NCBI GenBank assembly: GCA_905178155.1 | Contig: CAJINV010000010.1 | Span: forward strand, 1,308,451 to 1,372,450 | Source of the DNA: Amoebophrya sp. A120 | Lineage: Eukaryota > Protista > Dinoflagellata | Direction: 5' to 3' | Length of the DNA: 64,000 bases | Part shown: positions 3,898 to 64,000 of the stretch, one piece after another | Layout: each line of letters opens with the position of its first letter | Numbering within the stretch: the first letter of the stretch is position 1 | The notes under the pieces: model-generated | What the model saw: the letters and a program-made list of their open reading frames with translations, nothing else | Databases searched by the model: none | Told to the model about the DNA's origin: nothing | Position numbers and translations under genes: made by a program

Positions 3898-6800
3898 ATG
3901 GCCTCGACGCAGCAGGCCCGGCGTCTTGTCGCGGGCGACGGCCCGCAGATTGCTTCTTCCAAGCTTTTCCCAAACCCAAAGGAGTTCCAATGCGACCAGA
4001 ACGCGGACTACTTGAAGAAGAGGTTGCAGGTGTGGGAAAAGGTGAAGGCCAAACACGAAAAGGCTGTTGCCGCTATTCCGAAAAAGCAAATCACCATCAC
4101 CCTGCCGGACGGGAAGCAGGTGCAGGGAACGAGCTTCGAAACCACTCCTTTAATGATTGCAGAGGGGATTTCCAAGAAACTAGCCGGGGACATTGTGGTG
4201 GCGAAGGTAGTAGAATTGGATAGTTCGTGCAGCTCTTGTATGGTCTGTGCATGACAATGACCAAGCACAACTCTGTTGCGTACTATTGCGCATGAGAAGG
4301 ATGGTTCGTAGTTGTCAACAAACCTATATTATAAGGTCTACTACACCGAGCCCATCGCCTCTTTAACGCAATGCGTCGCCGCGGATGAAGAGCCGGACTC
4401 CGATGCTGACGGATCTGATGACGAAGACGCGAAGGAGGACAAATTTGTTCTGTGGGACATCAGCCGGCCACTGGAGGGGAATTGTACGCCGGTGGTTCTT
4501 TTTGTGTAGTGGATGACTTCTGCAGCTCTTTGCCATTGGTAGCTTGAGGCGCGACCGCCCGTTGCTGTTCATCATGCTTCTGGAGCATGACAATTTGAAT
4601 TTCAACAATTTGCAGGTGCGGAATGTTCTTTGCCAGCATCACTAAATTTTGTTCTATAGGTACTCTCCACCTTTTGAAATTTGAGGACAAGCTTGCCTCC
4701 AACGTGTTTTGGCATAGTTCCGCTCACGTCTTGGGAGAAGCCATTGAGGTCGAATTTGGGGCGCACTTGACCATCGGGCCACCCTTGGAGCGTGGGTTTT
4801 ACTACGACGGCTTTTTCGGCGAGAAGAAAATCTCCACGACGGAAGACTTGCCGAAATTAGAGAAGCGCTGCCAGGAAATCGTGAAGGAGAGCCAGCCGTT
4901 TGAGCGGGTCGCCTTAAGCAAGGAGGACGCTCTGGAAATGTTCGCGGACAACCCGTTCAAGGTGCAGTTGATCACGAACAAAGTCCCGGATGGATCCATG
5001 ACCAGCTGCTACCGCTGCGGGCCGCTAGTCGATTTGTGCCGCGGGCCGCACTTGCCGTCCACGGGTAGATGCAAGTCCTTCTGGATCCACAAAAACAGCG
5101 CGAGCTACTGGTACTGATAATCTTCTATTTTGCATGCGACTGACGCTGATTTTCTACTGTTCCTGGTAAAAATAGTGATTCCATGATACAATGCCTTGTG
5201 ATTGTGTACGTGTACGACCTGCACTTTCAACACTTGGCGTGAAAGATAAAACCAGAAGCACGATTCACCACTTCCACCTAGGTTGGGGAAAGACAAGAAC
5301 GACTCCCTCCAGCGCATTTACGGTGTTTCTTTCCCCTCCGACAAGGAGTTGAAGCAGCACAAACTGATGCTGGAAGAAGCCGCCAAGCGCGACCACCGAG
5401 AAATCGGGCGGAATATGAACTGCAAAAGTATCGTACTAGTATAATTTGCATCACAAATCTTGGCAAGAAGAAGAGTGGAATTTGTAATGCTGTGTTACCT
5501 TAGAAAGGAGATTTGTAATGCATATTTGCAATTAGTACAAGTGCGATAGGTTTACACAGGATACGGAAGCAGGAGCTCTGGTTTTTCTCCGACTATTCCG
5601 CCGGGTCCTGCTTCTGGATGCCGCACGGCGCCCGGATCTACAACAAGTTGGTGAGCTTCATGCAGCGGGAGTACGCCATTCGCGGGTTTCAGGAGGTGAT
5701 CACACCAAACTTGGTGCACGAGAGTCTCTTCAAGGCTTCGGGGCACTACTACAAGTACAAAGACGACATGTACAGTATGAACATCGAGGGGGAAAGGTGG
5801 TTTTTGAAACCGATGAACTGCCTATGAGAGTGCACAACCCTCCCTCCCCCTCATGTGTATGGCATGAACAGCAATACAAGCAACAGCAGAAAATGGGCTT
5901 TCGCATGACAAATCTGCATGCGGATTGTAGTACTATGTATAGTTTGTCATGCTAACAGCGCGTACGAGCAAGGTGCGAGTTTGGTACTTTGCATTACAAA
6001 TGAGGGGGAGGGGGAGATGTGCACTGTAATACTGCCCCGGCGACTGCGTCATCTTCGGGCATCGCGTGCGGAGCTATCGGGAACTACCCTTGCGGATGGT
6101 TTCCTTTGGCGTGCTGCACAGAAACGAAAACAGTGGGGCGTTGAGTGGTAGATCTAAAATGTGCTGGCTTGAGTATTTTCTCTCTGTCAACATGATAAAC
6201 AGAAAACATCATTTGGAATAGTTGCATAGCATGTCGTATAGAAGTCGCGTGATCATGTTTTGATGCTTCAGCCGAAACTAAATAGCGAGATCCCTGTATA
6301 TACGTTTTAGGTCTGACCCGCGTCCGTCGCTTTCAGCAGGATGACGGGCATATCTTCTGCCGGATGGACCAGGTGAAGAGCGAAATCAAGTACGCGCTCG
6401 CTTTCGTGCGGTTTGTGTACCAGACGATTGGCTTGGAATACACGATGGTGCTCTCTACCCGGCCGAAAAAAGCCATTGGCTCTGAGGAGGTGTGGACGTA
6501 TGCGGAGAAGGAGCTTGCCGAGGCTCTGAACGAGAACGGTGAGCCCTTGGGCTTGAACAAGGGCGACGGGGCGTTTTACGGACCGAAGATCGACTTCAAA
6601 GTAGAAAATGAGAAACCGTGAGTTACAAATTTTCTTACCGTGAATGTTGGTAGATGAAGTACAACACGATCTAATTTAGGCCAGTTTCAAGCTTCAAAGC
6701 CGACAATTCCATAGCAAAGCTACTCAAAAAACAAAAAGTTTAAAACCGCACCAAACAACTTCTTTTCGTCATCTTCAGGCAAAAGACGCCCTGGGTCGGC

Positions 6801-9726
6801 AGCACCAATGCGCGACGATGCAACTGGACTTCCTGTTTCCGATGCGATTCAACCTCCAGTTCCGCACACAGGCGGACGAGCAGAAGGAAGCTGGCGAGCA
6901 GGCGGCTTTGGGTAACAAGGAAGGAGACAAGACAACTGCAGTTCCTCCGAAAGGCAAAAACGCCGCTTCTGGTGCCGCTGTTGCCATAAATGGGAACGCG
7001 GCCGCGCTGGCCTCCGCGGACGGGGACTCGGCGGGAACCAAATCCGCTGTCGACAAGGAGAAGGAAAAAGAGGCGAAATTGGATATAACCCGCTCAGGTG
7101 TTACAATCTCAAACGTTGCAATAGAGTATTGAAATCTGTGATGCAAGATTGCATGATCTAGCCAAGTCTCATAGGCTTGCGCATGACAAGTTCCAGAGCC
7201 CCAAGCCCCACTATAATCTCGCGAGATTTGTATTGCAAAAGGTGGAAAGCTGTGCGAGTCTGTCATGCTCATCATGCAGCACAAATTCCACATTCTATTG
7301 TAACGTTTGAGATTGTAACGGTTGAGCAAGTCATATTGGAAGCGTACGGGTTGGAGGGCGTCTTGAAACCGGGGCACGAGCGACCCGTGGTGATTCACCG
7401 GGCGATATGGATTGCAAAAGTGCCTGGGTCTGGAAGATTGCAACTTGTCATGCTAAATCCGAATCATGCAGAAATCTGTGTTGCATGACCGCCAAAAGCT
7501 GCCCACTTTCGACCATCTTTGGAAGAAGTTTCTCATGCAGGATAGGCATGGCAGAGACCTCACAGACTCTGTCATGCTAGGTCCCGCATTCCAGACCTCA
7601 TGGGTCATGAAAAACCTGCATGACAAGTTTACACTTACTTTTCCAGACCCAGACACTTTTGCATTTGATAGGCGATTATGGGATCGGTGGAGAGGTTCAC
7701 AGGTAGGAAATAGCAAGGATTCGAATTCGTACTAGTCCTAGTCGTGCTGCTTTACGGCCTACATTTATTTTGCATCATAAGATGAAATAGAATGAAGATG
7801 AGCATAATCTTCCGACGAGTTGTACCGCAATTTATAGATGATGCATGTTCATCAGCGCGTTCTTTATTTCTATCGCACACAAACACAAACACAAACTCAT
7901 ATAACTCATAAGTACGTACCAAACATACAGGCATCCTGTGCGAGCACTACGGTGGTAAGTGGCCATTTTTCCTCAGCCCGCGGCAGATCTATCCTGAGTA
8001 AAAACGTACCCACCCCAGAGTTGTCATGCAGATTTGCCATGACAGGAACATTTGTGATGCGCAACCCCATGACAGGCATTTTCAATCGTGTTTGGGAACT
8101 TGTAATGCTGTAAACAGGATCAGGAGGTCGATTTGTGATGCGGCTTTCCTTGCTAACTTGCACTACCTTACGGACTGAGACTTGTCATGCGTGACTCCTA
8201 AAGCTCCTAGGTTTGTGTTGCAAAATCCTCATCCTGACTCTGGTGTGGGTGCGTTTTTACTCAGGATAAGATCATGATCGTCCCCACCCACGCCGGCCTG
8301 AACAAGTACTGCGAGTACGTTATGCATTGCAAAAGTATCGTACTTCCAGTAGGTGTAGGAACACTCGCATTACAAATTTCCCCAAGAACAAAAATGGAAC
8401 TTGTCATGCTAGATCAGCTACAAGATTCGATTTGTCATGCAGGACTGCAATTGCCAAGAATCCGATGTTTTTGCGATGTATATTCATCGCGGAGCAGTAC
8501 CGCAACTTTGGTCTTTTCGCCGACGTCGACACCAGCAGTAAGACCATGAACAAGAAGGTCCGGGAGGCCCAGCTGGCCCAGTACAACTACGTTGCGATCT
8601 GCGGGGAGAAGGAGCAGGAAAACTTGTCAGTTAATTTGCGGGACCGGGACACGGGGAAACCGGTCGGGGAGTTCGGCTTGAATGATTCGGTGGACATGTT
8701 TGTCGCGAAATCCAACCCGAACAGCAAACCAGCGAACCAGTTTGACGCGTTTGAGGGACGCGTGCCGAAGCCGGCTAGTGCGGGAAGTAGTAGTTCTACT
8801 TCATCATCTGGAACAGGAACATCAACTGGAACTGCGACGAACTTCTCTGTGCAGAAGACGGACAACGACAAGAAGACATCTGCTGCCACTGCGGAGACCG
8901 CTGGCGCAACATCCACGACGAGCAACAAGAAGGAAAATCAATCCAGTATCAGAGGCAAAAATCCCCCCTCCCCATATCGAACAGGTATGCTTCCGAAAAT
9001 TTGTGTTGCTGATTTGAGGTCACGAATCTCGTTTGTCTTGCAAGAAGACAAGGGCAGAAGCTTCCGCCTCATTATGGAATTGATTTGTCATGCTGTTGGG
9101 CCTAAAGGCAAAGGGGAGGCGTTTGCCATGCTGAACAACTAGAGGACCCATACGCCCCTACCTAGCCTGGGGATCTGGCCGCAGGAGTGCCTCTGTGCAA
9201 TACAAACCGGATTTGCGTACACAAATCCAGCATCAGAAATTCCGTTTTGATATGGGGAGGGGGGATTTTTCCTTTCGATATCCAGCAAGAAAAACTGGGA
9301 GGCGCACTTCGCGGAGTTCCCGTACGCTGAGGGGTTTGAACTGTCTGAGACCGATAAGATATGCATTGCAAACATGTCTGATGAATCTGGAAGGATGCAA
9401 GGGTTGTCATGCTTGTCTAGCATGACTGAAGAGTTTGTGCTGCGTGTCCAAGAAGAGACCCTTTTGTTTGTCATGCAAAACGCAGTTTGTCACGCGGAAA
9501 GCGCAACACTAAGAAGCGCAAATATTTCTCATGCTTCGCTGTGCAATACAAAGAGTTCACTATTCACAATTCAGCATTACAAGTTTCCTTTTCCAGACCC
9601 AGACATATTTGCATTTGATATAAGAAACTCTTCGACGACTGCAACAAATCCGGGATGCCGAGCTCCGAGAATTTTCAGCGGTGGTTCGAGCATGTGGGGA
9701 GCTTGGTGCGGGCGGGACGCTGCTGA
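3898..9726 (+). CDS. TARS: Threonyl-tRNA synthetase, eukaryotic cytosolic type, copy 1
   Basis: TGS domain (ITITLPDGK), editing domain ([17 protein letters not shown]), core motifs [48 protein letters not shown], and anticodon domain ([13 protein letters not shown]). GT-AG introns: 4207-4335, 4484-4659, 5111-5281, 6148-6310, 6601-6778, 7703-7930. Also 8 introners. TGA at 9724-9726. Confidence 0.95.
5414..5563. mobile_element. Introner family B (150 bp)
   Basis: TSD CGGAA; TATGAACTGCAAAAGTATCG...CAGGATA; absent from ThrRS copy 2. Confidence 0.9.
5823..6031. mobile_element. Introner family D (209 bp)
   Basis: TSD CTGCC inside the KPMNCP motif; TIR with AGTGCAC and CTCCCCCTC. Confidence 0.9.
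7084..7335. mobile_element. Introner related to family F (252 bp)
   Basis: TSD TTGGA; ~40-bp imperfect TIR containing GTTACAATCTCAAACGTT. Confidence 0.88.
7406..7670. mobile_element. Introner family A (265 bp)
   Basis: TSD GGCGA inside IHRAI; same TIRs as the element at 869. Confidence 0.9.
7990..8268. mobile_element. Introner family C (279 bp)
   Basis: TSD AGATC; TIR TATCCTGAGTAAAAACG...CGTTTTTACTCAGGATA. Confidence 0.9.
8321..8482. mobile_element. Introner family B (162 bp) with decayed right TSD
   Basis: Left TACGT, right TTCAT; TATGCATTGCAAAAGTATCG start; paralog reads EYVAEQ without interruption. Confidence 0.85.
8947..9280. mobile_element. Introner, singleton (334 bp)
   Basis: TSD TCCAG; TIR AAAAATCCCCCCTCCCCATATC / GATATGGGGAGGGGGGATTTTT. 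Confidence 0.88.
9360..9620. mobile_element. Introner family A, subfamily A2 (261 bp)
   Basis: TSD TAAGA; close sister of the element at 20743. Confidence 0.9.
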
Positions 9727-10978
9727 AACGGAAATGGCAATATGCTGTCTTCTTGGTACAACAACGTCAACAGCTTCGGGTCCTTTGCCTTTCAGATACG
9801 GCAAGGAAAATTTTTACAGCAACTGAAAAACTATGTTAAAAACGAGGGCGCCATGTGGTTGATAGATGAAATGACAGATACGGTTACGGAGAACAACCTT
9901 ACCTAATCATGCAACTTCTGAGGGAGGTGTTGTAGTTGTAGAGCCCCCTTAAAGAAACAGATAGAATGAAATGGTTTTTGACATTCGATGAAAATGAAAA
10001 TTTGTATTCGACCATCTCGTTCTTGAGAGGTTTCCGATGAATGTAAAAGGTAGACTTTCGGTCTTTTTGGTGAATGATATTGATTTTGCTTTGCGGGTTG
10101 CTGACGTGACAGACGCAGCGAAGATCCGAGAAGAATATACTTAGCTTAGTAGAAGTGGCGGATAACTGTAAATACGCAAAATTTCGAATAGAGCAACGAG
10201 CTCCGCATCACATGATAGAGTGGTTTTGTATAAAGTTGATGTCGGACGAAAGTAGTTAGGAAAAAAAAGAATTGAATAAATTTGGTTGACCACACGAGGA
10301 TTTTCCACGAAATGGTTTCGAACGATGATCATGATATCAATGGGAAGAATTAAGTCTCGAGCAAGACAGGCAATTGAAGAGAAACATTTATAGCTGTCCC
10401 GAGAAACAGAAACATGACGAAGCTGTCAGCAAAAATCAAATCAGCCGGTGGCATGCGCTGCTGGTGTTGTTGTTCAGCCACATGTGTATCACTACGAAGG
10501 ATCATCCCGAACAAACTTTTTTACAAGGAAAGATCATCATGTTGATCATCAGATCAGCTTGCATTGTTTCTACTTTTTGCCCGGACAATACATGTAGCGA
10601 ATTTAATCGCATCCAGTAGAAGATCTATTACCATCGCAAGATCGCAATCACTTTATCAAAGCAAGAAATTATTCCTACGTACATGAACATGGAACGCACG
10701 GTAAGAATTGTTCTTTGCGTTCTAAAATCTTCAGGCACTCCGGATTTGCGAAAAGTTAGATTTTTGACCTTTTATTTCGTACCCATAGTACGTTCGACGC
10801 ATTAGCATTACCCATACATTACACTTGCATCCACCCTAAACTTGTGCGTTTGATGTCCTAACAAGAAAATTTCTCAGAAACACCCCACGACATTCACATT
10901 CACCACCAAAGAACCTAAAAGATTCACATTTTCCACCGTCAAAGGCGTTTTTACGTCGCCACCGCACTACAACAAGCC

Positions 10979-13900
10979 ATGGCCACGACGCAGCAAGCCC
11001 GGCGTCTAGTCGCCGGCGACGGGCCGCAGATTGCTTCTTCCAAGCTTTTCCCGGATCCGAAAGAATTCAAATGCGGACAGAATGCGGAATACTTGAAGAA
11101 AAGATTACAGGTGTGGGAGAAGGTGAAGGCAAAACACGAGCAAGCGATCGCGAAAATCCCAAAGAAGGAGATCACGATCACACTGCCGGATGGCAAGCTG
11201 GTAAAGGGGACGAGCTTTGAAACCACGCCAGAATCGATTGCTGTTGGGATATCGAAGAAGCTGGCAGAAAAAATCGTCGTGGCTAAGGTACTGAGTGTTC
11301 GCGAGTAGAATCATGATCTTCACTTTGCTTTATGCAGAAGTGTGCCCGTGATGTGGTCTTCCTTTCAATCGGCGTCTACTACCGAAGAAAGCACGCGTTT
11401 TCATTTTCCGCATGACAAGCTAAATCACATTACAAAATCAGGTCTATTACTCCGAGACCATTGCGTCACTGTCTCAAGTAGTAAACGCCGATGAGGAGCC
11501 AGAGTCTGACGAGGATGGGTCAGATGACGAGGATATCCTGAGTAAAAACGTACCCACACCATAGTTGTCATGCAACTCTGCATGCTTAAAATGTTTCTCA
11601 TGCGGAGCCCCATGAGAAGCATTTTCTAATGCGGTTTTGAAATTTGTCATGCTCCAATCAGCACGAGATACTAGATCTGTAATGCTGCTAAACTAGCTTA
11701 AACAGCACTACACTACGCGGAGAAACTTGTCATGCCAAACAACCAAAGCTGGCTGATTTGTCTAGCAGATTCCCCATCTTGACTCTGGTGTGGGTACGTT
11801 TTTACTCAGGATAGAGGAAGACGCTAAGGACGAGAAATTTGTCCTCTGGGACATCTCGAGACCACTGGAAGGAAACTGTATTCTTGCAGCACTTCTTGTT
11901 TTTCAATTCTAACTCGCGTTGATCACTAAGCTCGGGGGCGTACTCCGCGTTGATCACTAAGCTCGGGGGCGTACTTATTTCCGGCAAGCTTTAATGCATT
12001 TCGCAAAGAAGCGAGCCGCCGGGCATTCAAGCCTGGGGCCTAATTTTTCTGTCCGACTTCCACGATCCTCAAGAGGCGACGGGGATAGTGGTTGTTTTCG
12101 TCGGGGGCTAAGGATTCTCTCCAGCTCTTAGGAAGTATCTTTTGAACGCCAAGCGTGAGGGTGGTAGCGCGAAGCGAACCCCAATTGAACTTCCCTTCAC
12201 TGCTAAAACGGGTGGTGTTGCGTCGTTCGAGATGCCTGGCTCTCAATGCAATCCAGAGCAGATGATTAGCCTTCAGAAAATTTAAGCGGTTATTAGTGCA
12301 GTTTCTGGCTCACCTAGGTAGCTCCTACAGTACCGAAGAAGCTTGTGCTGAATTGTTTTTCAATTCTGCACACCTTGGCTGCGTGACAGAGTTTTTTTTT
12401 GACGTGCATGCATTGCTTCTGGTTCTTTGCACTTCAACAAGCTGCTCTACTTTCTCGAGGCGCCTGTTTGCAGTGCTTTTCTGTAGTAGGTACAACCAGA
12501 TGAATTCATTTGTATTGCAAGACGACCATGAAGATCATGATCAACCGGCACGGAAATCATATCAGGCACCCTCCACCTCCTGACGTTCGACGATAAGCTT
12601 GCGTCCGACGTTTTCTGGCACAGCTCCGCTCACGTGCTGGGGCAGTCGATCGAAGTGGAGTTCGGAGCGCACTTAACCATCGGGCCCTCGTTGGAGAAAG
12701 GGTTCTACTACGACGGTTTTTTCGGAGACAAGAAAATTTCCACGACGGACGACCTGCCGAAATTAGAGAAGCGTTGCCAGGAAATCGTGAAGGAAAACCA
12801 GCCGTTTGAGCGGGTTACTCTGACCAAAGAAGACGCGCTCGAAATGTTCGCGGATAACCCCTTCAAAGTGCAGCTGATCACGAACAAAGTGCCGGACGGA
12901 TCCATGACCAGCTGCTACCGCTGCGGGCCATTAGTCGACTTGTGCCGCGGACCGCACCTGCCGTCCACGGGAAAATGCAAGTCCTTCTGGATCCACAAGA
13001 ACAGCGCAAGTTACTGGTATCATCTTTATATATCACGATGGTGTATGTTGTAGGTTTTTCTTGCAGCGAGTTTGAGACTTGCATGAAACTCAAGATGAAC
13101 ATGAAAGACGAATAAGTTGTTTTACCATCGTACCATCGGCTTCATCGTGTCACATAGGTGTGACGTCAATTATACCGATCTTTGTCAACAACAGTCCTCT
13201 GCGTCTGCGCCATGGCATGCGAGATGCCTATTTGCGTGGCACCGCACGCCTTTTCGCCACCGCACGCCCACGCCCACCCCTGCCGCCCCAGCTGCGCATA
13301 GCATGCTCGTCGCTCCGCTTTACGCCGCGCCGCGCTGTCTAAAACCAAAACCGCAACGCTGCGGTAGCAATATGTGCTTCCCAAAACGAACAAAATGCAA
13401 ACTCTAGGGAAGGAACTACAGCAACAAAACGAAAAGCATCATCTTGTTCCTCCCGATCATCCAAAACAAAAGTAGGCAAGAACCGCCCGAATGATCAAAC
13501 TAACGAACTACACAACTTCACCACAACAGGCTGGGTAAGGATAAGAACGATTCCCTCCAGCGCATCTACGGTGTCTCCTACCCCTCCGACAAGGAACTGA
13601 AACAGCACAAGACACAGCTCGAGGAAGCGGCTAAACGCGACCACCGGGAGATCGGGAAAAAGCAGGAGCTCTACTTCTTCTCCGACTTCTCCGCCGGCTC
13701 CTGCTTCTGGATGCCCCACGGCGCCAGGATTTACAACAAGTTGGTGGAATTCATGCGCCGGGAGTACGCGATTCGCGGGTTTCAGGAGGTGATCACGCCA
13801 AATCTGTACCACGAGTCTTTGTTTAAAGCGTCCTATGCATTGCAAAAGCATCGTACTAGTATAAATCGCAATACAAATTTTCTCAGAAGGAGAAATGGAG

Positions 13901-16381
13901 TTTGTAATGCTGATTTGGCTAAGAAACAAGATTTGTCATGCATGATTGCAATTAGTACTAGTGCGATACTTTTGCAGAGCATACGTCCGGACACTACTAC
14001 AAGTACAAAGACGACATGTACAACATGGACATTGTATCAAACAAAAAAGTGTTAACGTTAACGGTTTTCATAGATTGCAAATATGCATGACACATTTTGC
14101 CTAGCATGCGTGCTATGCATGACAAATTTGGGCGCGTTTTGTGATGCGTTACTGCATCACAAATTCCGTTGACGTTAACGCTTTTTCCTGTGATACCTTG
14201 AGGGGGAAAGATGGTTTCTGAAGCCCATGAACTGCCCAGGGCATTGCGTGGTTTTCGCGCACCGCGTGAGGAGTTACCGGGAGTTGCCGCTCCGGATGGC
14301 GTCCTTCGGAGTCTTGCACAGAAACGAGAACAGCGGGGCGTTGAGTGGTATACTTTTGTAGCCAGGGTTTTTTTTCTTTGACGCGAAGGAATGTGTAGTC
14401 AAATCAAAGTCGTGCACACTGTGCTGCGGTCCAGGAGGGGCTTGTTGAATGCTTGTATTGCGATGCTTTCTCTACTAAGTACGGGAGTACGAAATCCGTC
14501 TCAACATACAACTCGCACACCCAACCAATTACCAGGTCTGACCCGTGTCCGGCGGTTCCAGCAGGACGATGGCCATATCTTCTGCCGCATGGACCAGGTG
14601 AAATCCGAAATCAAAAACGCCTTGAAATTCGTGCAGTTCATCTACGAGACCATCGGTTTGGAGTACACCATGGTCCTTTCCACCCGCCCAAAGAAGGCAA
14701 TCGGCAGCAAGGAAGTGTGGGCCAACGCGGAGAAGCAATTAGCAGAGGCTTTGAACGAAAGCGGACTCCCGTGGGGGCTGAACAAGGGAGATGGGGCATT
14801 TTACGGACCGAAAATCGATTTCAAGGTATGTCGAGTTTTATTGGGATAGATTTTCAGATCCTTTTCGTTACATCACACAACATCTCGTAGTTGCTAAAGT
14901 TACAAGTTAGTATGCTTGTCGTTGTCACGCCGCATGTTGACACCAAAATCGGATTCTCATGATAGTGGCGTCAGGCTCACAAAGAAGATCAATCAATACT
15001 AGCGTCAAATATCATGCTTGTGTACATTCGATTGTGAACTCCCATTACCCCAGGTTAAAGACGCGATCGGGCGTCAGCACCAGTGTGCGACGATGCAATT
15101 GGATTTCCTTTTCCCGATGCGTTTCAACCTGCAGTTCCGCACGCAGGCGGACGAGCAGAAAGAAGCCGAGGCTGCCAAGGCCGAAGGAGAACAAGCACAG
15201 GCAGCAGGAGCTGCTCCGAAGGAAACCAAGGAGAACAAGAAAGACAAAAAAGCCGCTGCTGCTGCCGCTGAGCCGAAGGAACCGCGAGCGTCTGCTACGT
15301 CTGCAGATGGCGGTGCACCAGCGGCGGATGCTGGAAAATCTGCTGCCGACAAGGAGAAGGAAAAGGAACAGAGAATGGAAGCGGTTGGGTTGGAAGGTGT
15401 GCTGAAACCCGGTCACGAGCGGCCGGTCATGATCCACCGTGCCATTCTAGGATCCGTGGAGAGGTTCACAGGTACTGACGTGTAAGGGAGTCATGTAAGT
15501 TAAGATCTAGTGAGGTTTTTTCTTTGATGATGCAATAAACAATGTTGCGCTTCATCTACAACTGAATTGAAAGTGCAAGTGCTGTCTGCATGAAATCCAC
15601 ATCCAAATCAGGTATCCTGTGTGAGCACTACGGCGGCAAGTGGCCGTTCTTCATCTCCCCGAGACAGGTGATGATCGTCCCGACGCACGCTGGTTTGAAT
15701 AAGTACTGCGAGTACGTCGCCGAGCAGTACAAAAACTTCGGCATCTTCGCTGACGTCGACACCAGCAGCAAGACCATGAACAAGAAGGTCCGGGAAGCGC
15801 AGCTGGCCCAGTACAACTACGTTGCGATCTGCGGGGAGAAGGAACAGTCGGCGTTGGCGGTCAACTTGCGGGATCGCGACACGGGCAAGCCGCTCGGGGA
15901 GTTCTCGATTAAAGATTCCGTGGAGATGTTCGTCGCGAAATCCAACCCGAACAGCAAACCTGCGAACCAATTTGACGAATTTGAGGGCCAGAAGCCGGAG
16001 CCAATCGGCGCCGGGAAAAATGGTGCGTCTTCAAGCAGCTCCGCAGCTTCTTCTGCATCAAAACCAGAAAAGTTATCCGCGGAAACAGCAGGTGCGTCGA
16101 GCAAAAACGACTCTACTACTTCGAAGGAGACCACTGCAGCTGCTGGAGGTGCGAAGAACAAGAAGCAGGAACATCAGAATAATGGTGAGAACAACAAGAA
16201 CGGGGCAATAAAGAAGGATTGGGAGTCGCACTTCGCACAGTTTCCGTACGCTGGCGGATTTGAGATGTCCGCGACAGACAAGAAATTGTTCGAGGAGTGT
16301 AAGGGCGGCATGCCGAGTTCGGAGAATTTTCAGCGGTGGTTCCAACACGTAGGAAGCTTGGTAAGAAGTGGGATTGTGTAG
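10979..16381 (+). CDS. TARS: Threonyl-tRNA synthetase, copy 2 (tandem paralog)
   Basis: Same motifs as copy 1, with KPMNCPGHC intact. GT-AG introns at the same codon positions: 11288-11441, 11878-12565, 13017-13529, 14348-14535, 14826-15053, 15472-15611. Three introners. Confidence 0.95.
11534..11813. mobile_element. Introner family C (280 bp)
   Basis: TSD GAGGA; near-perfect TIR TATCCTGAGTAAAAACGTACCCACACC. Confidence 0.9.
11911..12352 (-). mobile_element. Probable 5'-truncated non-LTR retroelement fragment inside a GT-AG intron
   Basis: Exact 15-bp direct repeat TTGTTTTTCAATTCT at 11896-11910 and 12353-12367; ~31-bp tandem repeat at the left end; the equivalent intron in copy 1 is only 176 bp. 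Confidence 0.55.
13834..13983. mobile_element. Introner family B (150 bp)
   Basis: TSD CGTCC inside FKASGH. Confidence 0.9.
14035..14195. mobile_element. Introner, singleton (161 bp)
   Basis: TSD CATTG/CCTTG; TIR with GTTAACGTTAACGG / CCGTTGACGTTAAC. Confidence 0.85.
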
Positions 16382-17089
16382 CTGATGTGGAGAACCGTTG
16401 TCAACAAATGGAGTTGTAGATCTTTGGAGGAGGAACAGTAGTGTAATGCAGCTCTTCTTGTCACACAGAAGTTGAAAATCAAAAAGAACGCTACCTTTAT
16501 CGATGAATAAAGCGCTCGCTTACTCTTATTTCACCAGTCTCTAATTATAGAGGAATATCGCTTACTCACGCTCATATTTCTGATTGTATCTATTGCTTTC
16601 TGCTGGTTCTGGTAGCGAGACGCAAGTCGCAGGATCACGTGTGATTTTTGCGGAAGTAGAGCCTTTCTGGTCACGTTAACACAATAAGCGGTGAAGTGAA
16701 AGAGACGACGCAAACTTTGAATGACTTTGAATCGATATCAGCGACAATGCCACTTCATGTTTCACTTCAAACTGAGGAGAAAGTAGGCTGCGTCATTCAA
16801 AGAGAACGAGAGCCTTTTGGTAGCACAAACGATGATCAGACTTTACGTCGAGACGCGCGGCCAATCTTAAGAAAAAAGATGATAAAAAAGTAGAATGAAA
16901 TTAAAGCGTAAGTGCGAGAGCTTCACCTTCATGCTCGAAGACGAGCTGCGCGAAGAGACTATTGCTGACACTGATCATGGAGTGTGTTCCCCTGGTCTAC
17001 TACATTGGATTTTGCTTTTGTTGTGTCTGTCTTTGTTCTGGAAACAGCAGCAAAACTCTGCGCATCACCAAGCCTACCAGTCCGTAGGC

Positions 17090-19632: not shown

Positions 19633-22600
19633 ATGGACGCTGCCACCACGACCCTCACCCCCGATCAGGAGGAGCAGCTCACCCTGTTCCGGGAGGTGAC
19701 GGCGAACGAGGACCGACAGCGATGTATCCAGTACCTGGAGATGAGCAACTGGAATGTGGAACAGGCCATCAACTTGTCCATGACCGGCGCATTAGACAAC
19801 ACACCAGCAACAGGCTCCGACCACGCGGCCGCCATGAACTTCATAACCGGCGACCACGAACCGGCAATAGGACCACAACAGCAGACCAGGCCGAGTGGGG
19901 GGGTAGAGCAGAGCTTCTTTTTGTTGAGGATGATAGATGCATGATTACTTGTCTTCTAGTTGGAGATCGTTGGATGGGACATACTACCTGTCTTGCGCGA
20001 TCAACATCGGGTCGTGCAGCTGTTCTATAACCCGCCGTGCGGTGCTTCAAAGTAAGTAAATGTAAATCGACACTACAAGAGACAACAATACAATATGCTC
20101 AGTACAAAGAAACAACTCAAACCAGGACCCCGACGCATCCCTCGCCCAAAAAGTGGTCGAGAAGGTCGGCAACGTATCCTGTGCAAAAGTATCGTACTCG
20201 TATTGCAATCATGCATTACAAACTTTTTTCTCAAGGGAAAACAGCATTACAAATTTTATTTCTCATGCTGAGGGAATTTGTCATGCATTTATACGAATAC
20301 GATACTTTTGCAGTTCATACAACGCCGCCAGCAAGGTACTCAACGGCATCGGCGGGTTTCTGCACTCCATGTTGATCCCGGACGAAGTATGAACTGCAAA
20401 AATGTCTGGGTCTGGAACATTCTAAACTTGTGATGCTGTCTCTGGATTCTGAAAAAATTTGTATTGCATGACCAGCAAGAGGGCTCCAGTTTGTGCTACG
20501 CAGAGCGGTCATTTTTCATGCTGTAGAGGCATCACAAAGCGCTCTAAAAATCTGTGATGCTACGGCATGCATCACAGACATCATGAGCCATGGAAAATAT
20601 GCATGACAAATCTAGAAATCTTCCAGGCCCAGACACTTTTGCATTTGATACGATGACGGGTATAACAACAACACCTCCGGCGGAAGTAGTTCCAGCAGCA
20701 GCAGTGGTAGAGCGAACCGGAACAGTTTCAAAGCGTACTACGTATCAAATGCAAATGTGTCTGGGCCTGGCAGATTGTTTGTCATGCTTGTCTGGCATGA
20801 CTGAACAGTTTGTGATGCGTGTCAAAGAAGAGACCCGCCTTGTACAACTTGTCATGCAACAACGCAGTTTGTGTTTGTCATGCGGAAAGCGCAACACTAA
20901 GCAGCGCAGATATTTCTCATGCTTGGCTGTGCATTACAGAGCATCCACTATTCCCAACCCAGCATTACAAGTTTCCAGAACCAGACATATTTGCAATGCA
21001 TACTACGAGCGACAATACAAGACGGACGCTTCGACCGCCTGCCCGGACTTTTTCGACGGAACGTTTCAGCAGGCAATAACGAAAGCGAAGGACAACATGA
21101 AACTCCTTATGGTCTACTTCCACTGCGAAACCGCAAGTTTGACCGACGACTTTTGCAAAAACTGTCTCAACAACGACATCGTGACAGTGATGTTGAGTGA
21201 CACGTGCGTCAGCTTCGGGGCCGACATAAACGACCGGACCAGTTACGACTTGGCAAGGCAGTTTCAGGTATTTGTTTTGTTCTTGTGGACGCGGACGTCG
21301 TCGTGTTTGGCTGCATGACAAAAATGCCAGAATTGACGACCGCCTGCAAAACGAGTCGTGATACATCATGAACGTGAAGGAAAGTAAACAGATTTTTACA
21401 AGCTACACGACTCATGTGCACCATGAATCACACAAACAAACTTCATGACTTTTCAGGTTCAACGCTACCCGTACCTGGCGCTGGTGCTTCCCGTCTCCGC
21501 AACGGACTACAGGATACTTCACAAAGTCGACGGGCAGGTATGAAAATGAAGTTATTTGTGACGTTGCATGACAAAGTGAAGACACAGAAGTGGCGACGAT
21601 AGATTTGCCATGCTATGCTGAAAGAAGAAGTAGATGCAGTGCTGCTCATACGACTTTGATTATTTTGTGATGCAAATCATGTATCCAAACAGCAAGCCGG
21701 ATCAGTTGACGGCCTCGTCGCGCTTTTGACCCAAGCCGCCGACGACCTGGAGCAAAATCGTATCAAGTGTAAAAGTGTCTAGGTCTGGAAGAATGCATGC
21801 TTGTCTGGCATGCTTGTCTGGCATGACTCGAGAATCTGTGTTGCATAGGCACGAAAAAACCCTCTGGCCTGTCATGCAAAAGCGCAGTTTGCCATGCGGA
21901 ATACGTAAGACATGGCAGCCAAAAAAATTGTCATGCATGTTATCATGTCGTACTGCAGTGCGTCTATCATTATTTTTAGCATATACAATTTTCCAGGCCC
22001 AGACATATTAGCAATCCATAAACCGGGCCCAGCTAGTAACGCAAGCGAACCAAGTTCAGCACGACAGGCTTCTGCGCGCCGAGCAAGACAGGGAGTATGA
22101 AGAGGCTTTGGCGAAGGTACAGTGTGGCTGGTTTGTCATGCAGACTGTCAATGCATATACAACAGCGTTGTCCTCCTGCTCCTCACGAGTGCGCAACACA
22201 AGTTTTTTTCTGAAAAGAATCTTCCTTGATAAATTTCATATCACCTCCTCCACAGGACCGCGAAGCCGAGGCCGCACGGCAGCGGGAGGAGGAGGCCCGA
22301 CAGAAGGCGCTGGAAGAGGAAAAACAGGCCCAGCTCGCCAGGGAGCAAGCGGCGAAAGACATCGAGGCGAAAAGGAGAAAACTGGCGACCGAACTTGTCA
22401 CTGTGGACCCAAGCACGACGGAAGCCAAGACGAAGATACAAGTGAAATTCCCGACGGGGCAGAGGGTATCTTTACTTTACTAAAACTAGGAATGAATTTG
22501 TTTCTATTTTCACCACTTGGGTCAACGTCGTCATGCGGTACCAGCATGCTAGGCGAAGTGGAAAGAAATCAGGCTTTGTCTGTTGCAACATGACAAATTG

Positions 22601-22916
22601 CATTCCGTTGTTTTCGTTGCATGACAAACTTCTGAAACTCGGTAGCAATGTCTGATGCATCATCCACAATGCAAATTGCTATCAGGTCAACCGTACGTTC
22701 CTCCAGTCCCACACACTGAAGGACCTCTTCAACTGGGTCGAGGCGGCAGAGTACGCCGAAACGGGGACAAGTATCAAAGTCCCGAGCAAGTTCTCCCTCA
22801 ATACGTCCTTCCCCACGAAGTTGCTTCAGCGCAGCGACGAAAGCCTGAAGGACGCCGGGCTGGTGCCCAACGCGCAGGTTTTGCTACAGGATCTGTCCAG
22901 CGACGACGAAGAGTAA
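19633..22916 (+). CDS. UBX-domain p97/Cdc48 adaptor, FAF1/FAF2-like (UBA-UAS-coiled coil-UBX)
   Basis: UBA-like N-terminus (LEMSNWNVEQAI), UAS domain (PDFFDGTFQQA...KLLMVYFH), LRAEQDREYEEAL, UBX domain (IQVKFPTGQRVNRTF...TSFPT...SLKDAGL). GT-AG introns: 19903-20125, 21268-21456, 21538-21692, 22117-22255, 22466-22685. Four introners. Confidence 0.88.
20175..20319. mobile_element. Introner family B, reverse orientation (145 bp)
   Basis: TSD CAACG; TATCCTGTGCAAAAGTATCG...TTTTGCAGTTCATA. Confidence 0.9.
20388..20650. mobile_element. Introner family A (263 bp)
   Basis: TSD CGAAG/CGATG; family A TIR core. Confidence 0.88.
20743..21002. mobile_element. Introner family A2 (260 bp)
   Basis: TSD CTACG; sister of 9360. 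Confidence 0.9.
21761..22020. mobile_element. Introner family A2 (260 bp)
   Basis: TSD AATCG/AACCG; TATCAAGTGT...GCAATCCATA. Confidence 0.85.
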
Positions 22917-23569
22917 CAAGTTCTTGAGCGGGGAGGAGGAGGTGGTGTTCATAATCGCGGCAAACTACCCGGCGGCTGGGATAGAGCGCACGGTGGTGAT
23001 GGTGCTCCTGTGGGATCATGTTGAGTAGAGGAGCCCCCGGGGGTCATTTTCCGTGGTAGAAGTGCTACGCCTACTGAAAGCCGAGGCTAGTGGAAGGGGG
23101 CTGTTTATTGCTCCATCTTGCGGTAGGGGAGAGTCCCTGATCGTTTTTTGTGACAAGGAGCTGAAGAAGTAGAATGATGAGTGATCGAGAAGGGACTGGT
23201 GGATCGATGATTAGCGATCAACGCGACTGATCATGAAAACTCTACCTAGTGGCATCGTGCTCAGCAGGCGAAGAATAGTCAGTGCAAGCTTCTACGATAG
23301 TCGTGAATGTTGGTAGAACTGCGATTGCGGCTTGATGCTGTGTGTAGGAGCTCGAATCAACCACGACGGTCCGGACGCTACATTGAATCACTTCTACAGC
23401 CACTCAAAGGCGATAGTTTTTTCGTTGTGCTACACGTACAAGGGAGAGCTAAAGCAACAAGAACACGCTGTAGAAACGCAAATCGCTATGGCTGACTTGG
23501 AAGCCTGTGCCATCGAAGCCGTTGCTGTGGTCGTCTGATGTTCTGCCACTTACCTTGCTGGCGCTTTAC

Positions 23570-25000: not shown

Positions 25001-25346
25001 TGTTCCTTTGCGTTGGGCATTTCAGGCCATGACGCAGGGAGTGTGAGTGTGTCTGTTCTTCTCCGATATAAACCATCCAGAGCTCATCTCTGCCTTTCGT
25101 CACAATATTTGCACAGCGTTTTTTGCGTTTGCGTCGTGTCGCCAGCTTTTTCTTCTTGGTTGTCGGTCCTTGCTGTGAGGTTCAGTTTTTTTCTCATGCT
25201 GATGCTGACGCAGCTCCAACTCCCTGTCCTGCCTGTGTATCTACCGCGACCGAGTGAAGCAAGCTAGCAATTAGATAGGAAATCAGAGCTGTTTAGTTCG
25301 CAAGCGAGGCACAACCGTAATAACCTAACAAGCACCCCTCTCCAAA

Positions 25347-26354
25347 ATGGGCAAGAAGCGCATGAAAACCCTCTCCGACCTCAAGGTCGCCATTATCGGA
25401 GATGAACAAACCGTGACCGGGTTGTACGAGAAAGAAAACTTCTTGAGTTCCGGCCGCAAAGTTTGTATCTCTATTGCATAAGCATGACACGCGTTTGTTG
25501 AAGATGATTTAGAGTTGCACCTGCAGAAAAAAGGCATTCCTGAACAAGAACAATTTGTGTGTAGTAGTCCGAGGACTCAAGACTTCGCTTCCATATTCTA
25601 GTCTTGGGCGGTGGTGGCATGGTCGATGGGCAGGGGAAGAAGAATTTCATGGTCGTCGACGGCGCAACGCGGAATCACGAGGTATAATAGAGACAATGTT
25701 TTAATACGACGATACCAAGTACGACTAAACTTGTGATGCAGCACAATCTGAATGACATAGTCATAGAATCGATGCGGATGCCACTTCATTTTCATTCGAA
25801 ACAAAAACCTCAGATCGCCGAGCAGTTTCAGGAGTGGACGACGCGGAAGGATCTCGCCGTGATCCTGATCTCCCAGACGGAGGCGGGAAAGATCCGAAAC
25901 GTCGTCGACGATTTTGCCCGCAGCGGGCAGGTGATCCCCGCGGTGCTGGAGATGCCGACCAAGGACGTCGCTTACGACCCAAAGAAGGACTATGGAAGCG
26001 TCAGGTTTGAAATCGTCAAAGTTAAAATAGTTTGGCACGCATAAAATCGATACCGGTTGGAAGCCCAATTTCCAAGCGGCGCATGACAAATTTTCGGAGT
26101 ACCGGAATCCAATTTGTCATGCTGTTTGGGCACAGAAGACTGCTTTTGTCATGCTTGTTCAGAAGCTCTATCCCAAACCCTAAATAGGCTCACAATCTGC
26201 CTCGCTTGCCTTCCCGGCAAGACAGGCACTTCATGCCTTGCATTTTATGCATGACAAATCATTACAACTTTGACGATTTCAATCCTGACAGATCCATAAG
26301 GACCCGATCATGCAGCGCGTGCAGATGTTCTTCGGAAGCAACCCGGTCATGTGA
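25347..26354 (+). CDS. ATP6V1F: V-type H+-ATPase subunit F
   Basis: MGKKRMKTLSDLKVAIIGDEQTVTGLVLGGGG...KNFMVVD...RKDLAVILISQ...IPAVLEMPTKDVAYDPKKDPIMQRV. Removed segments: 25425-25600 (non-canonical), 25682-25813 (GT-AG), 25991-26303. Confidence 0.92.
25425..25595. mobile_element. Degenerate (old) introner
   Basis: TAC...ATA ends; residual inverted repeat TCTTGAGT/ACTCAAGA; TSD lost (GGTTG vs TTCTA); the adjacent GT...AG join gives the wrong frame. Confidence 0.65.
25991..26298. mobile_element. Introner family G (308 bp)
   Basis: TSD AGGAC; TIR GTCAGGTTTGAAATCGTCAAAGTT / AACTTTGACGATTTCAATCCTGAC. Confidence 0.9.
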
Positions 26355-27249
26355 GGAGGTTCTCCGAAAGAACGACGAGGGAAGGCGAAAACCACTTAAT
26401 TTCCTATCACAAGAACATTTTTTCACCTGCTATTTTTGAGGTAAGTACTACTGTCAGCACCCTGTGCAGCTACAACATTTATCTGGCGCACCAGTTCGAA
26501 GATGTAGTTGCCAGGAACAAGCTGTGACAATTTTTCATCTGATTTCTTAGTTCTCTGTGGTCTGTTAGTATGGTAGAAGTTCTTCATCTCTCACTGATTC
26601 TTGTGCTTACGTCGCGTTAGTCTGCGGGGTAGGGAATGAATCGGAATAAAACATCAATTCGGGTTGACAGCTAAAGAATTCATTGTCGATGTGCTAAAGC
26701 AAAAAAAATTCCTTTATCGAAACAAAAAAACAAAGTAGAGCCGCGACCTTCGCGCGACCAAAGATAGCAATGCAAGCCGCTAAGCATAGCTGGTGAAAAA
26801 GGGTGTTCGATATATCAAAACTTGGCAGTGAAAGAAGATGAAGATCCGAAAAACGACACGCTCTTGTCATTAATACCAACTCGCCTGCGCTTCGCTTTTT
26901 TCGCAGAGAAAATCACTTCTACATAGTGACGTCGCTTTACTGTGTTAGAAGCACCCTGCTCAGGATCAGAAACCAATGTGTCGTCTCTACTGGTAGCCTG
27001 TTTGAATGATTATACCCATACGAAGAGAGCTGCTAGTACGAGTACCTTGGATGGCTATCGCTTTCGATGATGTGAGTAGTACTCAGCGCTACGCATTTGT
27101 TTACCAGGACGGGACACAAACATGGAGCGCGCGGCGTAGTAGTAAAAGTGAAAAAATGTCCACGTGGTCTCCGCAAGAAGTCCGTCTTGAAGAGTTGTAC
27201 ACAAGTGGTCCCAAAGTGTAGCTGACTGCTCTCGACGATTATCCGCCAG

Positions 27250-30200
27250 ATGCGCAACCCCACATCAAGCACGTCCACCGGCAATCCCCGCCTCGGCGGG
27301 GACGATGACGAGGGGCCGATCCTTGTGGACCGCACCGAACATGTCATCGACGAAACCACAACTGCGCTGGAAGACGAGGAGCTGCTGCTCCAGCAGGAGC
27401 GAGAAGAGCGCGAGCAAGAGGAATTGTTTCAGAAACAGCGCTCGGCGGACAGGGGCAGTAGAACTGGTGGCGCACCAGCCAAAGGCCCAGGAGGTACTAC
27501 CAGTGCTTCGGCCTCCAGAGAGTCCTCGAAGCAGTTTCCTACTGGTGGTAGTGCTGTCGGACTCGGGCAGATTTCAGATGGAGACAGTCAGCAGCAGCAG
27601 TTGCAGCAACTATCTCAATCTGGGTCTCCCACAGGGGCACCGGATCACCACCCTCTGCTTGATGGGCAAATAAAACTGACCCAGCAGCCGCTTTCCGACC
27701 ACGATTCAGGTGAGTCTACCACTTCCGAAGACCATTTAAACGATGTTTTTGAAATCCGGGATTTCACCGCCGTGTCGCCGCTGGAAAAACTCTCTCGGGA
27801 GCTGCAACTGATCGTGAAAGGCTGGAGCAGCCACTTCAAATCTACCTCGGGATGTTTGACGTCCGTGGTAGATTGCCGGGATACCGCACAGTGTTTGAAA
27901 TTGTTGGAGCAGATGCGGAGAAATAGTGGCGGAACTTTTAGTGCCGCTGGCGGGAAAACATCAGCAAACATCGCGAAAACAAATCAAAATCTTCCATCGC
28001 CCGCGGCTTCAGTTCTAATCGACCACCAGGAAAAGGAGTTTAAAGCTTTGACCCTGCAATTCCAGCAAGCGCTGCAGTTTTACAGCGAGCACAAGTCGTC
28101 GCAGGGCCGGATGATCGCGAGATTTCGGTTCAACAACATGAAATACCACCTACATGTGTACTACGGCCGCCCGGTACCGCTGAACGTGACGGATGAGCTG
28201 TTTCATCGGTTTACGAATCATATAGCTGGTGGTGGTGGTGGTCTTCGTCTTGTTGTTGGCGGCGGGCCCACAACGACAGGCGCTGCTAAGTCGTCCACTG
28301 GTATAATCGCTGCTAGCTCTAGCGCAACATCAACTGCCCCCGCCTTTCCACCGGTCCTGAAAGAGCTCGCGGACCTACTCGCGCAGGAGCAAAAATTTCC
28401 CGTAAAGTGCCACCCGAATACCCGGAGATTCGGCGTCCGGCAGTTCATCATGGTGACCCGGGAGCGGGTACCAAATGCAAAAATGTCTGGGTCTGGAAGG
28501 TTGGAACTTGTGATGCTAACTTTGGAGTCCAAAAAAATTTGTATTGCATGACCAGCAAGAGGAGTCTAGTTTGTGCTACGCGGCGGGGAGGGCGTTTGTC
28601 ATGCGGAGTAGGCATCAGCAAGCCCTCTAAAAATCTGTGATGCTAGGGCGTGCATTACAGACATCCTGGGTCATGCAAAATATGCATGACAAGTCTCAGA
28701 ATTATCTTCCAGACCCAGACACTTTTGCAATCCATAGAGGGAGTCGCAGGAAATTTCAAACGACTCCGCGAACTTTCTCCTGTCCGCGATGCTGATTGCG
28801 TATGAACGCCTCAGGTTTGAAATCCTGAAAGTGGAAATGATTTGTAATGCAAAAAAACGATTCCAGTTGAAGTGGCATTTGTAGTCGGCGCATGACAAAT
28901 TTCCCGGGCACTTAAAGCGTGTCTGTCATGCAGCTCAAGGCAAGGGGGGGCCCTTCTGTCGTGCTAAGCAGCACTCCAATTCTTGACCCCTAGCAGGACA
29001 ATAGTCAGCCTCCATTGCGTTCTCTGCAATACAGTCTTTTTTGCGTCGCATTTCATGCATCACAAATCATTTCCACTTTGAGGATTTCCATTCTGAGGCT
29101 TTCATATTGCGGTGCGAGCGGCGTTTCCGACCGCCGGGTTCAAGAGCCTGGAGTGCGGGAGGAAGGCAAGGGGTGCAGTACAACTAGCTGCGTCGAGTAG
29201 TCGTGGCCCCGGGGCGAAAGCACTGAATAAGAATAATATTAAAGCGGGTAGAACAAGAACATCTACATCTTCTTCAACATCACCCGCATCAGGAACTACG
29301 ACTATTGCAGTCCCTACTACTTCTTCTTTCTCCGACACTGCCCTGGACATCCCCTGTTTTGTGAACCAAAACCCGGGTGAGGTATGGATTGCAAATATGT
29401 CTGGGTCTGGAAGATTGTCAGCTTTGTCATGCATATTGGGCACGAGGACCCATGACGCCTGTAATGAATGACCTAGCATCACAGAATTTCAGAGGGCTTT
29501 CTGATGCCTTTTCCGCATGAGAAATGCCTTCTCCGCATAGCACAGACTGGACTCCTCTTGCATACAAATGCTTCGCGGGTCCAAAGATAGCATCACAAGT
29601 TGCAACCTTCCAGACCCAGACATAATTGCGATGCATATGAGGGGGTAAATGGCAAAACGATCGGCGAGGGGTTCTTCCTTCTCCCCGACAAGAAGACGGC
29701 TTTGCGTCGGAATTTTCTCTCCTGCGCGCGGTCGAGTAGACACGTAGACCCGCTACTGAAGGACCTACCCGGATTGCTGATCTTCTGGGAAAGTTTGAGA
29801 AATAAGGTGCCGAGGGAGGTCAATTTGAAGTACAGAAAGGACTGCACTTGGACGAAGGCGGAGCATTTGACAGAGCTCTTTCACGCTTGTTCTCGTACGG
29901 ATGTTTCTGGTGCAGCTACGGTTGCATCTTCATCTACTGCTGCATTTATGTTCCCGCAACTGCAGCAACCAGTTGAAAACTATACAGGGAAGACCTCCAA
30001 ATCTCTTACCCCAAGGGAATTAGTCCGCGTCCAGCACGGCCCGCAGATTCGCGCCCGGTTTGTGTACCTTATGGCGCTCTCAACTGTTACATTCTCAACT
30101 GTTACTTACATGAATTCGTGATGCAAGAATGGCAACAGTAAAAGGGGCTAGCTTGCTGCTTTCGCATCACAGATTTGGCACAGATTTAGGCGCTGTTGAG

Positions 30201-55195: not shown

Positions 55196-55288
55196 CCCCT
55201 CCTCAATCGCTGCGGCGGTGGTGCTAACCTGGATAACGTCCTACCGCACTCCCCTCCTGAACGCGCTGTGGTAAACTAGCTACCCTCT

Positions 55289-60311: not shown

Positions 60312-60368
60312 CTTCAATCTAACTTATCTGACTAGAAGAGCCGGCTTGAGTCTCAAGGCGTAGCGTAG

Positions 60369-63807: not shown

Positions 63808-64000
63808 AATAGCAAGCAATAGCAAGCCTTTTTTCTTTTCCTTTGCTTTTGGCTCTTTGCTATTGCTTGCTTGCTATTGCTTGCTGGCTATTGCTTGCTT
63901 GCTATTTCTTGCTTGCTATTGCTTGCTTGCCATTGCTTGCTTGCTATTGTTTGCTGGCTATTGCTTGCTTGCTATTGCTTGCTTGCTATTGCTTGCTTGC
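63808..64000. repeat. (GCTATTGCTTGCTT)n simple repeat running off the window end
   Basis: Array from ~63857; short inverted copy AATAGCAAGCAATAGCAAG at 63808-63826. Confidence 0.9.

Follow-up and report, generated by a model that had tools for sequence, protein, structure and literature searches.

The 64,000-nt stretch of Amoebophrya sp. A120 DNA analyzed here (the window; CAJINV010000010.1, positions 1,308,451–1,372,450, forward strand) contains 33 short elements of 145–334 nt, each with TAT...ATA inverted ends and a flanking 5-bp target-site duplication (TSD). RNA-type contigs, protein records and the reading frames of the host genes indicate that such elements are removed exactly, together with one copy of the duplication, whichever way they lie relative to the gene, and likely at a single position relative to their ends. 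The elements belong to the published introner class of A120 (Farhat et al. 2021, PMC7789003), and the system is therefore already known. An earlier note on this DNA had proposed that removal is independent of orientation and, on that ground, that the stem is the likely signal; the first part is borne out below, whereas the second does not follow.

Removal in either orientation

The opposed pairs named in that note are real, and its coordinates and quoted ends are all exact. Global identity is higher after reverse complementation than on the same strand for the family B elements at 5414 and 20175 (77.9% vs 61.7%), for the family A element at 29383 against those at 869 (74.4% vs 60.9%) and 20388 (73.7% vs 59.6%), and for the family E elements at 386 and 53293 (76.6% vs 58.1%). 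Interior-only identities, with 35 nt trimmed from each end, agree, so the reversals are no artefact of the symmetric ends. The host genes all lie on the plus strand, as had also been stated. The coding score is clearly plus for the host of the 386 element; the weakest case is the host of the 53293 element, placed on this strand by a 455-codon open reading frame (ORF) and plus-strand GT-AG introns, with a weak coding score (+3.0 and 0).

Removal was read from contigs of two samples from one study (X3–X6), placed on 19500–36000 and 20126–32450 and guessed to be RNA; that they lack GT-AG introns supports this, as does zero depth at 23825–25057, between genes, in X3 and X4. These intervals cover families A and B in both orientations. 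Among the joints listed, 11 of the 13 elements in this stretch have one that skips exactly the element plus 5 nt; the other two, at 28469 and 28801, lie under low cover, and the lack of a listed joint there is not evidence against removal. Contigs of X3, X4 and X6 skip the reversed family B element at 20175, and lengths in X5 imply the same. With its TSD the element measures 150 nt, keeps the frame and contains no stop; nothing therefore forces its removal, and its absence cannot be put down to decay of transcripts that retain it. The reversed family A element at 29383 is skipped in one X3 contig (depth 6.7) and would break the frame if retained, but it is the weaker example, since GT..AG can be read there by chance in the inferred register.

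Two tandem threonyl-tRNA synthetase (ThrRS) genes offer independent evidence from protein. With a ThrRS 1 exon as query, two matches were found among 63 candidates, P0001 and P0002, both named Amoebophrya sp. A120, and they match the spliced translations of the two genes at every residue (943 and 961 aa). The paralogues have all six GT-AG introns in common and no element in common (8 vs 3); thus, element insertion postdates the duplication, and each paralogue supplies the empty sites of the other as natural controls, as for the 5414 element, the empty site of which lies near 13660. In this comparison, what is removed is the element plus one copy of the duplication.

Orientation counts per family, the check suggested in the earlier note, were made outside the window. 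A pattern for both family B ends recovered 126 stretches of one other assembly (prefix JACKZZ01) with 298 elements, and the host strand was taken from a coding model that called 37 of 38 held-out window chunks correctly and tied on the other. Family B shows no bias relative to the host, at 60:50 with a strand margin of at least 5 and 34:34 with a margin of at least 20, and the counts for families A (14:10) and E (4:7) are likewise unremarkable (no family with p<0.17). Same-family pairs within one locus have the same orientation in 37 cases and opposite orientations in 35. An orientation bias was considered for the window, where 24 of 28 family members are in the majority orientation (p ~0.01, post hoc), and was rejected as local or due to chance, being unreproduced outside.

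Frames were also compared in these loci. An open-frame test was non-discriminating (202 sense vs 175 antisense of 214) and was replaced by a test with independently called flank frames, which rejoin after excision of the element plus 5 nt at 93 of the 110 sites that passed the filters. Rejoining holds in both orientations, the family B values being 25/27 and 25/31; these come from genome sequence, and removal there is inferred.

Cut position and the letters at the element ends

The step from orientation to stem had been argued from the apparent lack of need for a donor, a branch point or a pyrimidine tract. It fails because the inverted repeat presents the same 5' TAT and the same 3' TTTT-N7-ATA in both orientations, so that orientation-independence cannot exclude sequence signals.

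The cut can be described by its register, that is, the number of duplication letters before it, which perfect duplications hide and imperfect ones reveal. The RNA joints allow registers 4 and 5 at 20388, 3, 4 and 5 at 21761, 3 and 4 at 25425, and 0–4 at 31752, with 4 as the sole common value, and the protein records limit the cut to 4–5 at 8321 and 2–5 at 14035. From these four RNA joints and two protein records, we infer a single register of 4, which, if uniform, likely places the cut 1 nt before the TAT and 4 nt after the ATA.

Read in register 4, on which these letters depend, 32 of 32 elements start with N-T-A-T/C and thus have U at +2 and A at +3, as do all 18 canonical introns, the donors of which are all GTA, followed at +4 by T, G or C in 8, 5 and 5 cases, respectively. 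The +1 base of the elements is G in 14, A in 9, C in 6 and T in 3 of the 32, and the last two bases can be anything. In this register, the elements have the U+2/A+3 donor core of U2-type introns and lack the combination of a GT or GC donor with an AG acceptor: GT..AG occurs in 8 of 233 elements, and the 30070 element has no cut that starts with G. G at +1 and a terminal AG are not needed for removal. Selection for a GT donor or an AG acceptor was considered and rejected: in 177 perfect duplications, G at position 5 (61) is matched by C at position 1 (58) and AG (14) by CT (15), which points not to selection for splicing but to a palindromic target preference; nor do 59 mismatched duplication positions show any drift to G or AG.

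Published sites give a similar picture. In Table S4 of Farhat et al., the nine top non-canonical sites of A120 are all NT-NN, including CT-, AT- and TT-, and nine sites of strain A25, the repeat of which starts with TTA, are all TT-NN (PMC7789003). All 18 listed sites thus have T at +2, although the text of that paper describes the borders as variable or unknown, with no clear splice signature (PMC7789003); here, one register fits all informative sites. Taken with their repeats, the sites of the two strains imply UA at +2/+3 in both.

Rare end changes differ between the two sides. Among 252 elements with a called strand, from a scan that did not demand TAT, the first, second and third TAT positions are changed 1, 1 and 7 times at 5' ends vs 6, 4 and 1 times at 3' ends (Fisher p 0.0045, post hoc), whereas the inner AAA, taken as a control, is symmetric between the ends. 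Most 5' changes yield TAC, TAG or TAA, close to the range seen in canonical donors; the two that hit the T or the A stand behind a G, so that the starts are GC and GTG.

For the stem, G-U (143) is about as frequent as A-C (136) in the 233 elements, and the sense and antisense duplexes are equal, so there is no signature of RNA pairing. Pairs 4–7 are unpaired in 71–131 of the 233 elements. The degenerate 25425 element in the V-ATPase F gene has a predicted terminal pairing of 0.00, yet it is removed exactly in the RNA-type contigs; it reads GT..CT at cut 4, its duplication matches at 1 of 5 positions, and it is possibly an intermediate toward a canonical intron.

As a strand-specific branch point, the internal motif GCAWNACA finds no support: its counts on the two strands are 44 and 61 in elements and 7 and 6 in canonical introns, and its distances are scattered. 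A U-rich tract is missing from the canonical introns here as well, and its absence from the elements is therefore nothing peculiar.

Candidate mechanisms of removal

We lean slightly toward a relaxed spliceosome that would read a donor supplied by the terminal inverted repeat (TIR), with the hairpin helping. A DNA transposase would insert copies with a 5-bp target duplication; the spliceosome would then take the N-U-A of the repeat as the putative donor, with UA at intron positions +2/+3, while the predicted hairpin would bridge both ends and place the 3' cut 4 nt farther on; a candidate branch point is position −7, where the terminal ATA has its first A. One duplication would be rebuilt from 4 upstream bases and 1 downstream base, leaving the protein unchanged, and orientation would be irrelevant because the transcript 5' end carries the same letters of the inverted repeat either way. 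A120 is reported to have U2, U4, U5 and U6 small nuclear RNAs and 83 of 89 spliceosome proteins (PMC7789003), and the spliceosome processes non-GT/AG introns in Fritillaria (PMC13326754). A fuller version, which we put forward tentatively, is that a spliceosome lacking U1 needs neither G at +1 nor AG in A120 and would use the N-U-A donor, the −7 branch point and a 3' cut 4 nt past the hairpin, so that any TAT-ended transposon could become a scar-free exonic intron in either orientation, with A25 reaching the same UA through a different repeat.

Several points weigh against this reading. The register comes from few sites and from the contigs of one study, and no informative site is clearly reversed. 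G at +1 is missing in 18 of the 32 window elements, and introns without G at +1 or a terminal AG are hard for a standard spliceosome to process. An A at −7 is present in only 7 of the 18 canonical introns, so a branch point there would be unshared. The asymmetry between 5' and 3' changes is post hoc, involves 20 changes and comes from analyses of largely the same DNA. The terminal duplex is predicted to be strong in most elements (mean −26 kcal/mol vs −1.9 to −11.9 in the 18 canonical introns), and a stem-led route therefore fits equally well. The motifs in Table S4 may carry aligner bias, and U1 was not detected in A120 (PMC7789003).

Such a stem-led route, possible though in our view doubtful, would resemble that of Euglena: a non-spliceosomal endonuclease and ligase would recognize the terminal hairpin and make a staggered cut 1 nt and 4 nt outside the stem, and would need no donor, branch point or tract. 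It would suit the strong terminal stems predicted for most RNA-confirmed elements, the fixed offsets from the stem, the lack of selection for G+1 or AG and the non-detection of U1 in A120 (PMC7789003); in Euglena, nonconventional introns rely on a paired motif with spacers of fixed length (PMC12501133) and are released as circles (PMC11282704). It is hard to square with the removal of the 25425 element, with the G-U to A-C ratio and the often open pairs 4–7, with end mutations that are direction-specific and follow a GTAY-donor pattern, or with UA at +2/+3 in canonical introns and in the elements of both strains. An unlikely alternative is that the cut varies and the spliceosome picks any donor that starts with G (GT, GC or GA) in or near the duplication, as in the introners of Polarella, for which variable frames have been described (bioRxiv 2020.10.14.339549). 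Although 10 of 11 RNA joints permit at least one intron starting with G, and G stands at position 4 or 5 in 23 of 31 upstream window duplications, the top A120 sites include CT-, AT- and TT- (PMC7789003). Moreover, no cut allowed at 30070 by X3 and X4 starts with G, and the excess of G is mirrored by C on the opposite side, as expected of a palindromic target preference.

We consider two further explanations highly improbable. The joints could be artefacts of reverse transcription, with template switching at hairpins between direct repeats and the elements staying in the RNA. A hairpin with short direct repeats is a classic template-switch substrate, and the RNA evidence consists entirely of cDNA-derived contigs from one study. 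However, with the elements left in, both ThrRS genes, V-ATPase F and a 2310-codon ORF would be disrupted; the contigs follow the joined form as their main path, at full gene depth and beside GT-AG joints; the 25425 element offers neither a good duplication nor a predicted stem; and frames rejoin at most of the outside sites. Alternatively, the elements could be excised from DNA in an expressed subset of nuclei, in the manner of the internal eliminated sequences of ciliates, which are likewise TA-bounded, transposon-derived and orientation-free. Against this, DNA-type contigs (X1) continue from exon sequence into the elements at the depth of the flanks (22–26x), no joint among the 15 DNA-type joints listed skips an element, although a minor fraction could escape, the assembly retains all copies, and the directional conservation of the ends fits a step at the transcript level.

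Element anatomy, host genes and known relatives

A strict scan for TAT..ATA-ended inverted repeats between perfect 5-bp duplications found 22 elements in the window vs 0–1 in each of 30 dinucleotide shuffles. The inverted repeat is TAT, 7 variable nt and AAA, with A at positions 11–13 in 204–217 of 233 elements (from scans that required TAT-like ends), and the 5-bp duplication is perfect in 177 of the 233. Eleven families have three or more copies, and DNA depth over the elements is 10^3–10^5 vs ~25 on the flanks, a rough figure from summed contigs. In families A and B, the left and right ends differ at positions 4–7 (in B, consensus TATCCTG vs TATGCAT), which places a conserved internal loop directly behind a terminal helix of 3 bp. 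The elements have the properties of miniature inverted-repeat transposable elements (MITEs), or non-autonomous TIR DNA transposons, being short, non-coding and present in high copy number, with TIRs, a TSD of fixed length and a palindromic target preference. They equally have those of A120 introners, with the TAT-N7-AAA inverted repeat, a direct repeat at the border, repeated families of RNA-supported non-canonical introns and occurrence in A120. Rfam covariance models, group I and II introns included, gave no match at the gathering score across the whole window.

In the first 36 kb, 6184 element bases contain the motif GCAWNACA/TGTNWTGC 105 times, vs 13 times in 4014 bases of canonical introns, 4 times in 15815 exon bases and 3 times in 9986 other bases. 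The motif is often paired ~31 nt apart, in unrelated families (e.g. 7990–8268 and 20388–20650), and may be a transposase binding site; its traces in GT-AG introns hint that some of these are old converted elements.

The elements and the main host genes are listed in Table 1. Pfam matches were obtained for the ThrRS, UBX/FAF1 and V-ATPase F hosts (5 of 9 exon pieces matched), and none for the three pieces searched of the host at 27.2–35.8 kb. All 33 elements lie in coding exons, and none was found in the intergenic intervals 1.8–3.8, 9.8–10.9, 16.4–19.6, 22.9–25.3, 36–47.7 and 54–64 kb, which suggests a strong exon preference or a retention bias.

Table 1. Positions in the window of the elements and of their main host genes (ORF, open reading frame; ThrRS, threonyl-tRNA synthetase; TSD, target-site duplication)
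Feature	Position	Strand	Details
Family E element	386..594	.	TSD CAGGA; ends GATG; opposite to 53293
Diverged family B element	658..808	-	TSD ACTGG; orientation as 20175
Family A element	869..1130	+	TSD ACTGA
Family B element	5414..5563	+	TSD CGGAA
Family D element	5823..6031	+	TSD CTGCC
Element	7084..7335	.	TSD TTGGA
Family A element	7406..7670	+	TSD GGCGA
Family C element	7990..8268	+	TSD AGATC
Family B element	8321..8482	+	Imperfect TSD TACGT/TTCAT; P0001 fits cut after TSD position 4 or 5 only
Element	8947..9280	.	TSD TCCAG
Family A2 element	9360..9620	+	TSD TAAGA
Family C element	11534..11813	+	TSD GAGGA
Family B element	13834..13983	+	TSD CGTCC
Element	14035..14195	.	Imperfect TSD CATTG/CCTTG; P0002 fits cut after positions 2–5
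Reversed family B element	20175..20319	-	TSD CAACG; 150 nt with TSD; inferred intron 20174–20323, GT..AC
Family A element	20388..20650	+	Imperfect TSD CGAAG/CGATG; RNA joint, cut after 4 or 5 only
Family A2 element	20743..21002	+	TSD CTACG; RNA joint
Family A2 element	21761..22020	+	Imperfect TSD AATCG/AACCG; RNA joint, cut after 3, 4 or 5
Degenerate element in V-ATPase F gene	25425..25595	.	TAC..ATA; TSD GGTTG/TTCTA; RNA joint, cut after 3 or 4
Family F element	25991..26298	+	TSD AGGAC; RNA joint
Family A element	28469..28736	+	Starts TAC; TSD GCGGG/GAGGG; no RNA joint among joints listed
Family F element	28801..29106	+	TSD TTGCG; no RNA joint among joints listed
Reversed family A element	29383..29637	-	TSD TGAGG; 260 nt with TSD; inferred intron 29382–29641, GT..AG
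Family G element	30070..30308	+	TSD TACCT; RNA joint; no allowed cut starts with G
Family B element	31752..31903	+	Imperfect TSD TCCGT/TCCGC; RNA joint, cut after 0–4, not 5
Family C element	31960..32238	+	TSD TCTGG; RNA joint
Family B element	34186..34338	+	TSD CCTCG; RNA contig joins 34178 to 34337
Family D element	48348..48566	+	TSD CTTGA
Family B element	49039..49194	+	TSD TAGAG/CAGAG
Diverged family B element	50583..50751	+	Ends GATG
Diverged A2-like element	50796..51079	-	Opposite to 9360/20743/21761; frame restored on removal
Family G element	52984..53225	+	TSD ACTGA
Family E element	53293..53501	.	TSD TGCAC; opposite to 386
ThrRS 1 host gene	3898..9750	+	943 aa; 8 elements, 6 GT-AG introns; spliced translation equals P0001
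ThrRS 2 host gene	10979..16382	+	961 aa; 3 elements, 6 GT-AG introns, same as ThrRS 1; equals P0002
UBA-FAF1-UBX protein host gene	19633..22916	+	469 aa; 4 elements, 5 GT-AG introns
2310-codon ORF host gene	27214..35846 (start approximate)	+	ORF open once 7 elements removed

The window also contains other repeats. A long terminal repeat (LTR) retrotransposon-like element at 54664–60896 has two 532-bp repeats, 98.7% identical, that flank a long coding-like stretch on the minus strand; no TAT..ATA element was found inside it. Longer GC-rich intergenic segments at 37897–39369 and 43683–44939 have inverted repeats and short direct repeats of the surrounding DNA at their borders and are possibly larger DNA transposons of another kind. 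Tandem arrays lie at 42984–43518 (39-bp unit, partly palindromic), 38626–38767 (13 bp) and 63815–64000 (14 bp).

The A120 introners of Farhat et al. share with the elements described here the TAT + 7 nt + AAA repeat, the 5-bp direct repeat, a length of ~240 nt, the many families, the hairpin and the RNA support as non-canonical introns; their direct repeat is given as 3–5 nt at the exon/intron boundary and their inverted repeat as 8–20 nt, and no transposase is reported in A120 (PMC7789003). We found no statement on orientation relative to the host or on a fixed register for Amoebophrya elements in the text and supplement legends of that paper or in the literature searched, with figures and subscription papers outside the search; Figs 3 and S19–S23 of Farhat et al. 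may show part of these findings.

Among other systems, the introners of Polarella glacialis and Aureococcus anophagefferens are likewise TIR transposons that serve as introns in either orientation, with splice sites drawn from the end and the target duplication, but they use GT, GC or GA donors and AG acceptors, and all Polarella classes are orientation-biased (bioRxiv 2020.10.14.339549), whereas we see neither selection for G+1 or AG nor a bias. The nonconventional introns of euglenids (Nomura et al. 2025) are also MITE-like, with terminal pairing, direct repeats at the borders, non-GT/AG ends and fixed offsets outside the stem (PMC12501133, PMC11282704). The Euglena code, however, is N3CDG...CHG N5-6|R, with the stem from +4 (PMC12501133), whereas the ends here are N-TAT...ATA-N4, the stem running from TAT at +2 to 4 nt before the 3' site, and its first letters match the canonical donor of the host. 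In Fritillaria borealis (Soo et al. 2026), non-GT/AG introns, likely derived from MITEs, occur across the genome alongside canonical ones and are processed by a modified U2 spliceosome, the adaptation of which (U2AF paralogues, pattern of N6-methyladenosine) was studied there (PMC13326754).

To conclude, the elements are not new, and what this work adds is a testable reading of their splice code. It has been stated as an open question by what route tens of thousands of non-GT/AG introns are removed in Amoebophrya (PMC7789003). A fixed register, if true, makes exact predictions for the excised 5' end, for the branch candidate at −7 and for the duplication letters that remain exonic, and would separate a relaxed spliceosome from a second machinery like that of Euglena. 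Removal that is free of orientation, site and scar would explain how these transposons could spread through coding exons, including those of core genes.

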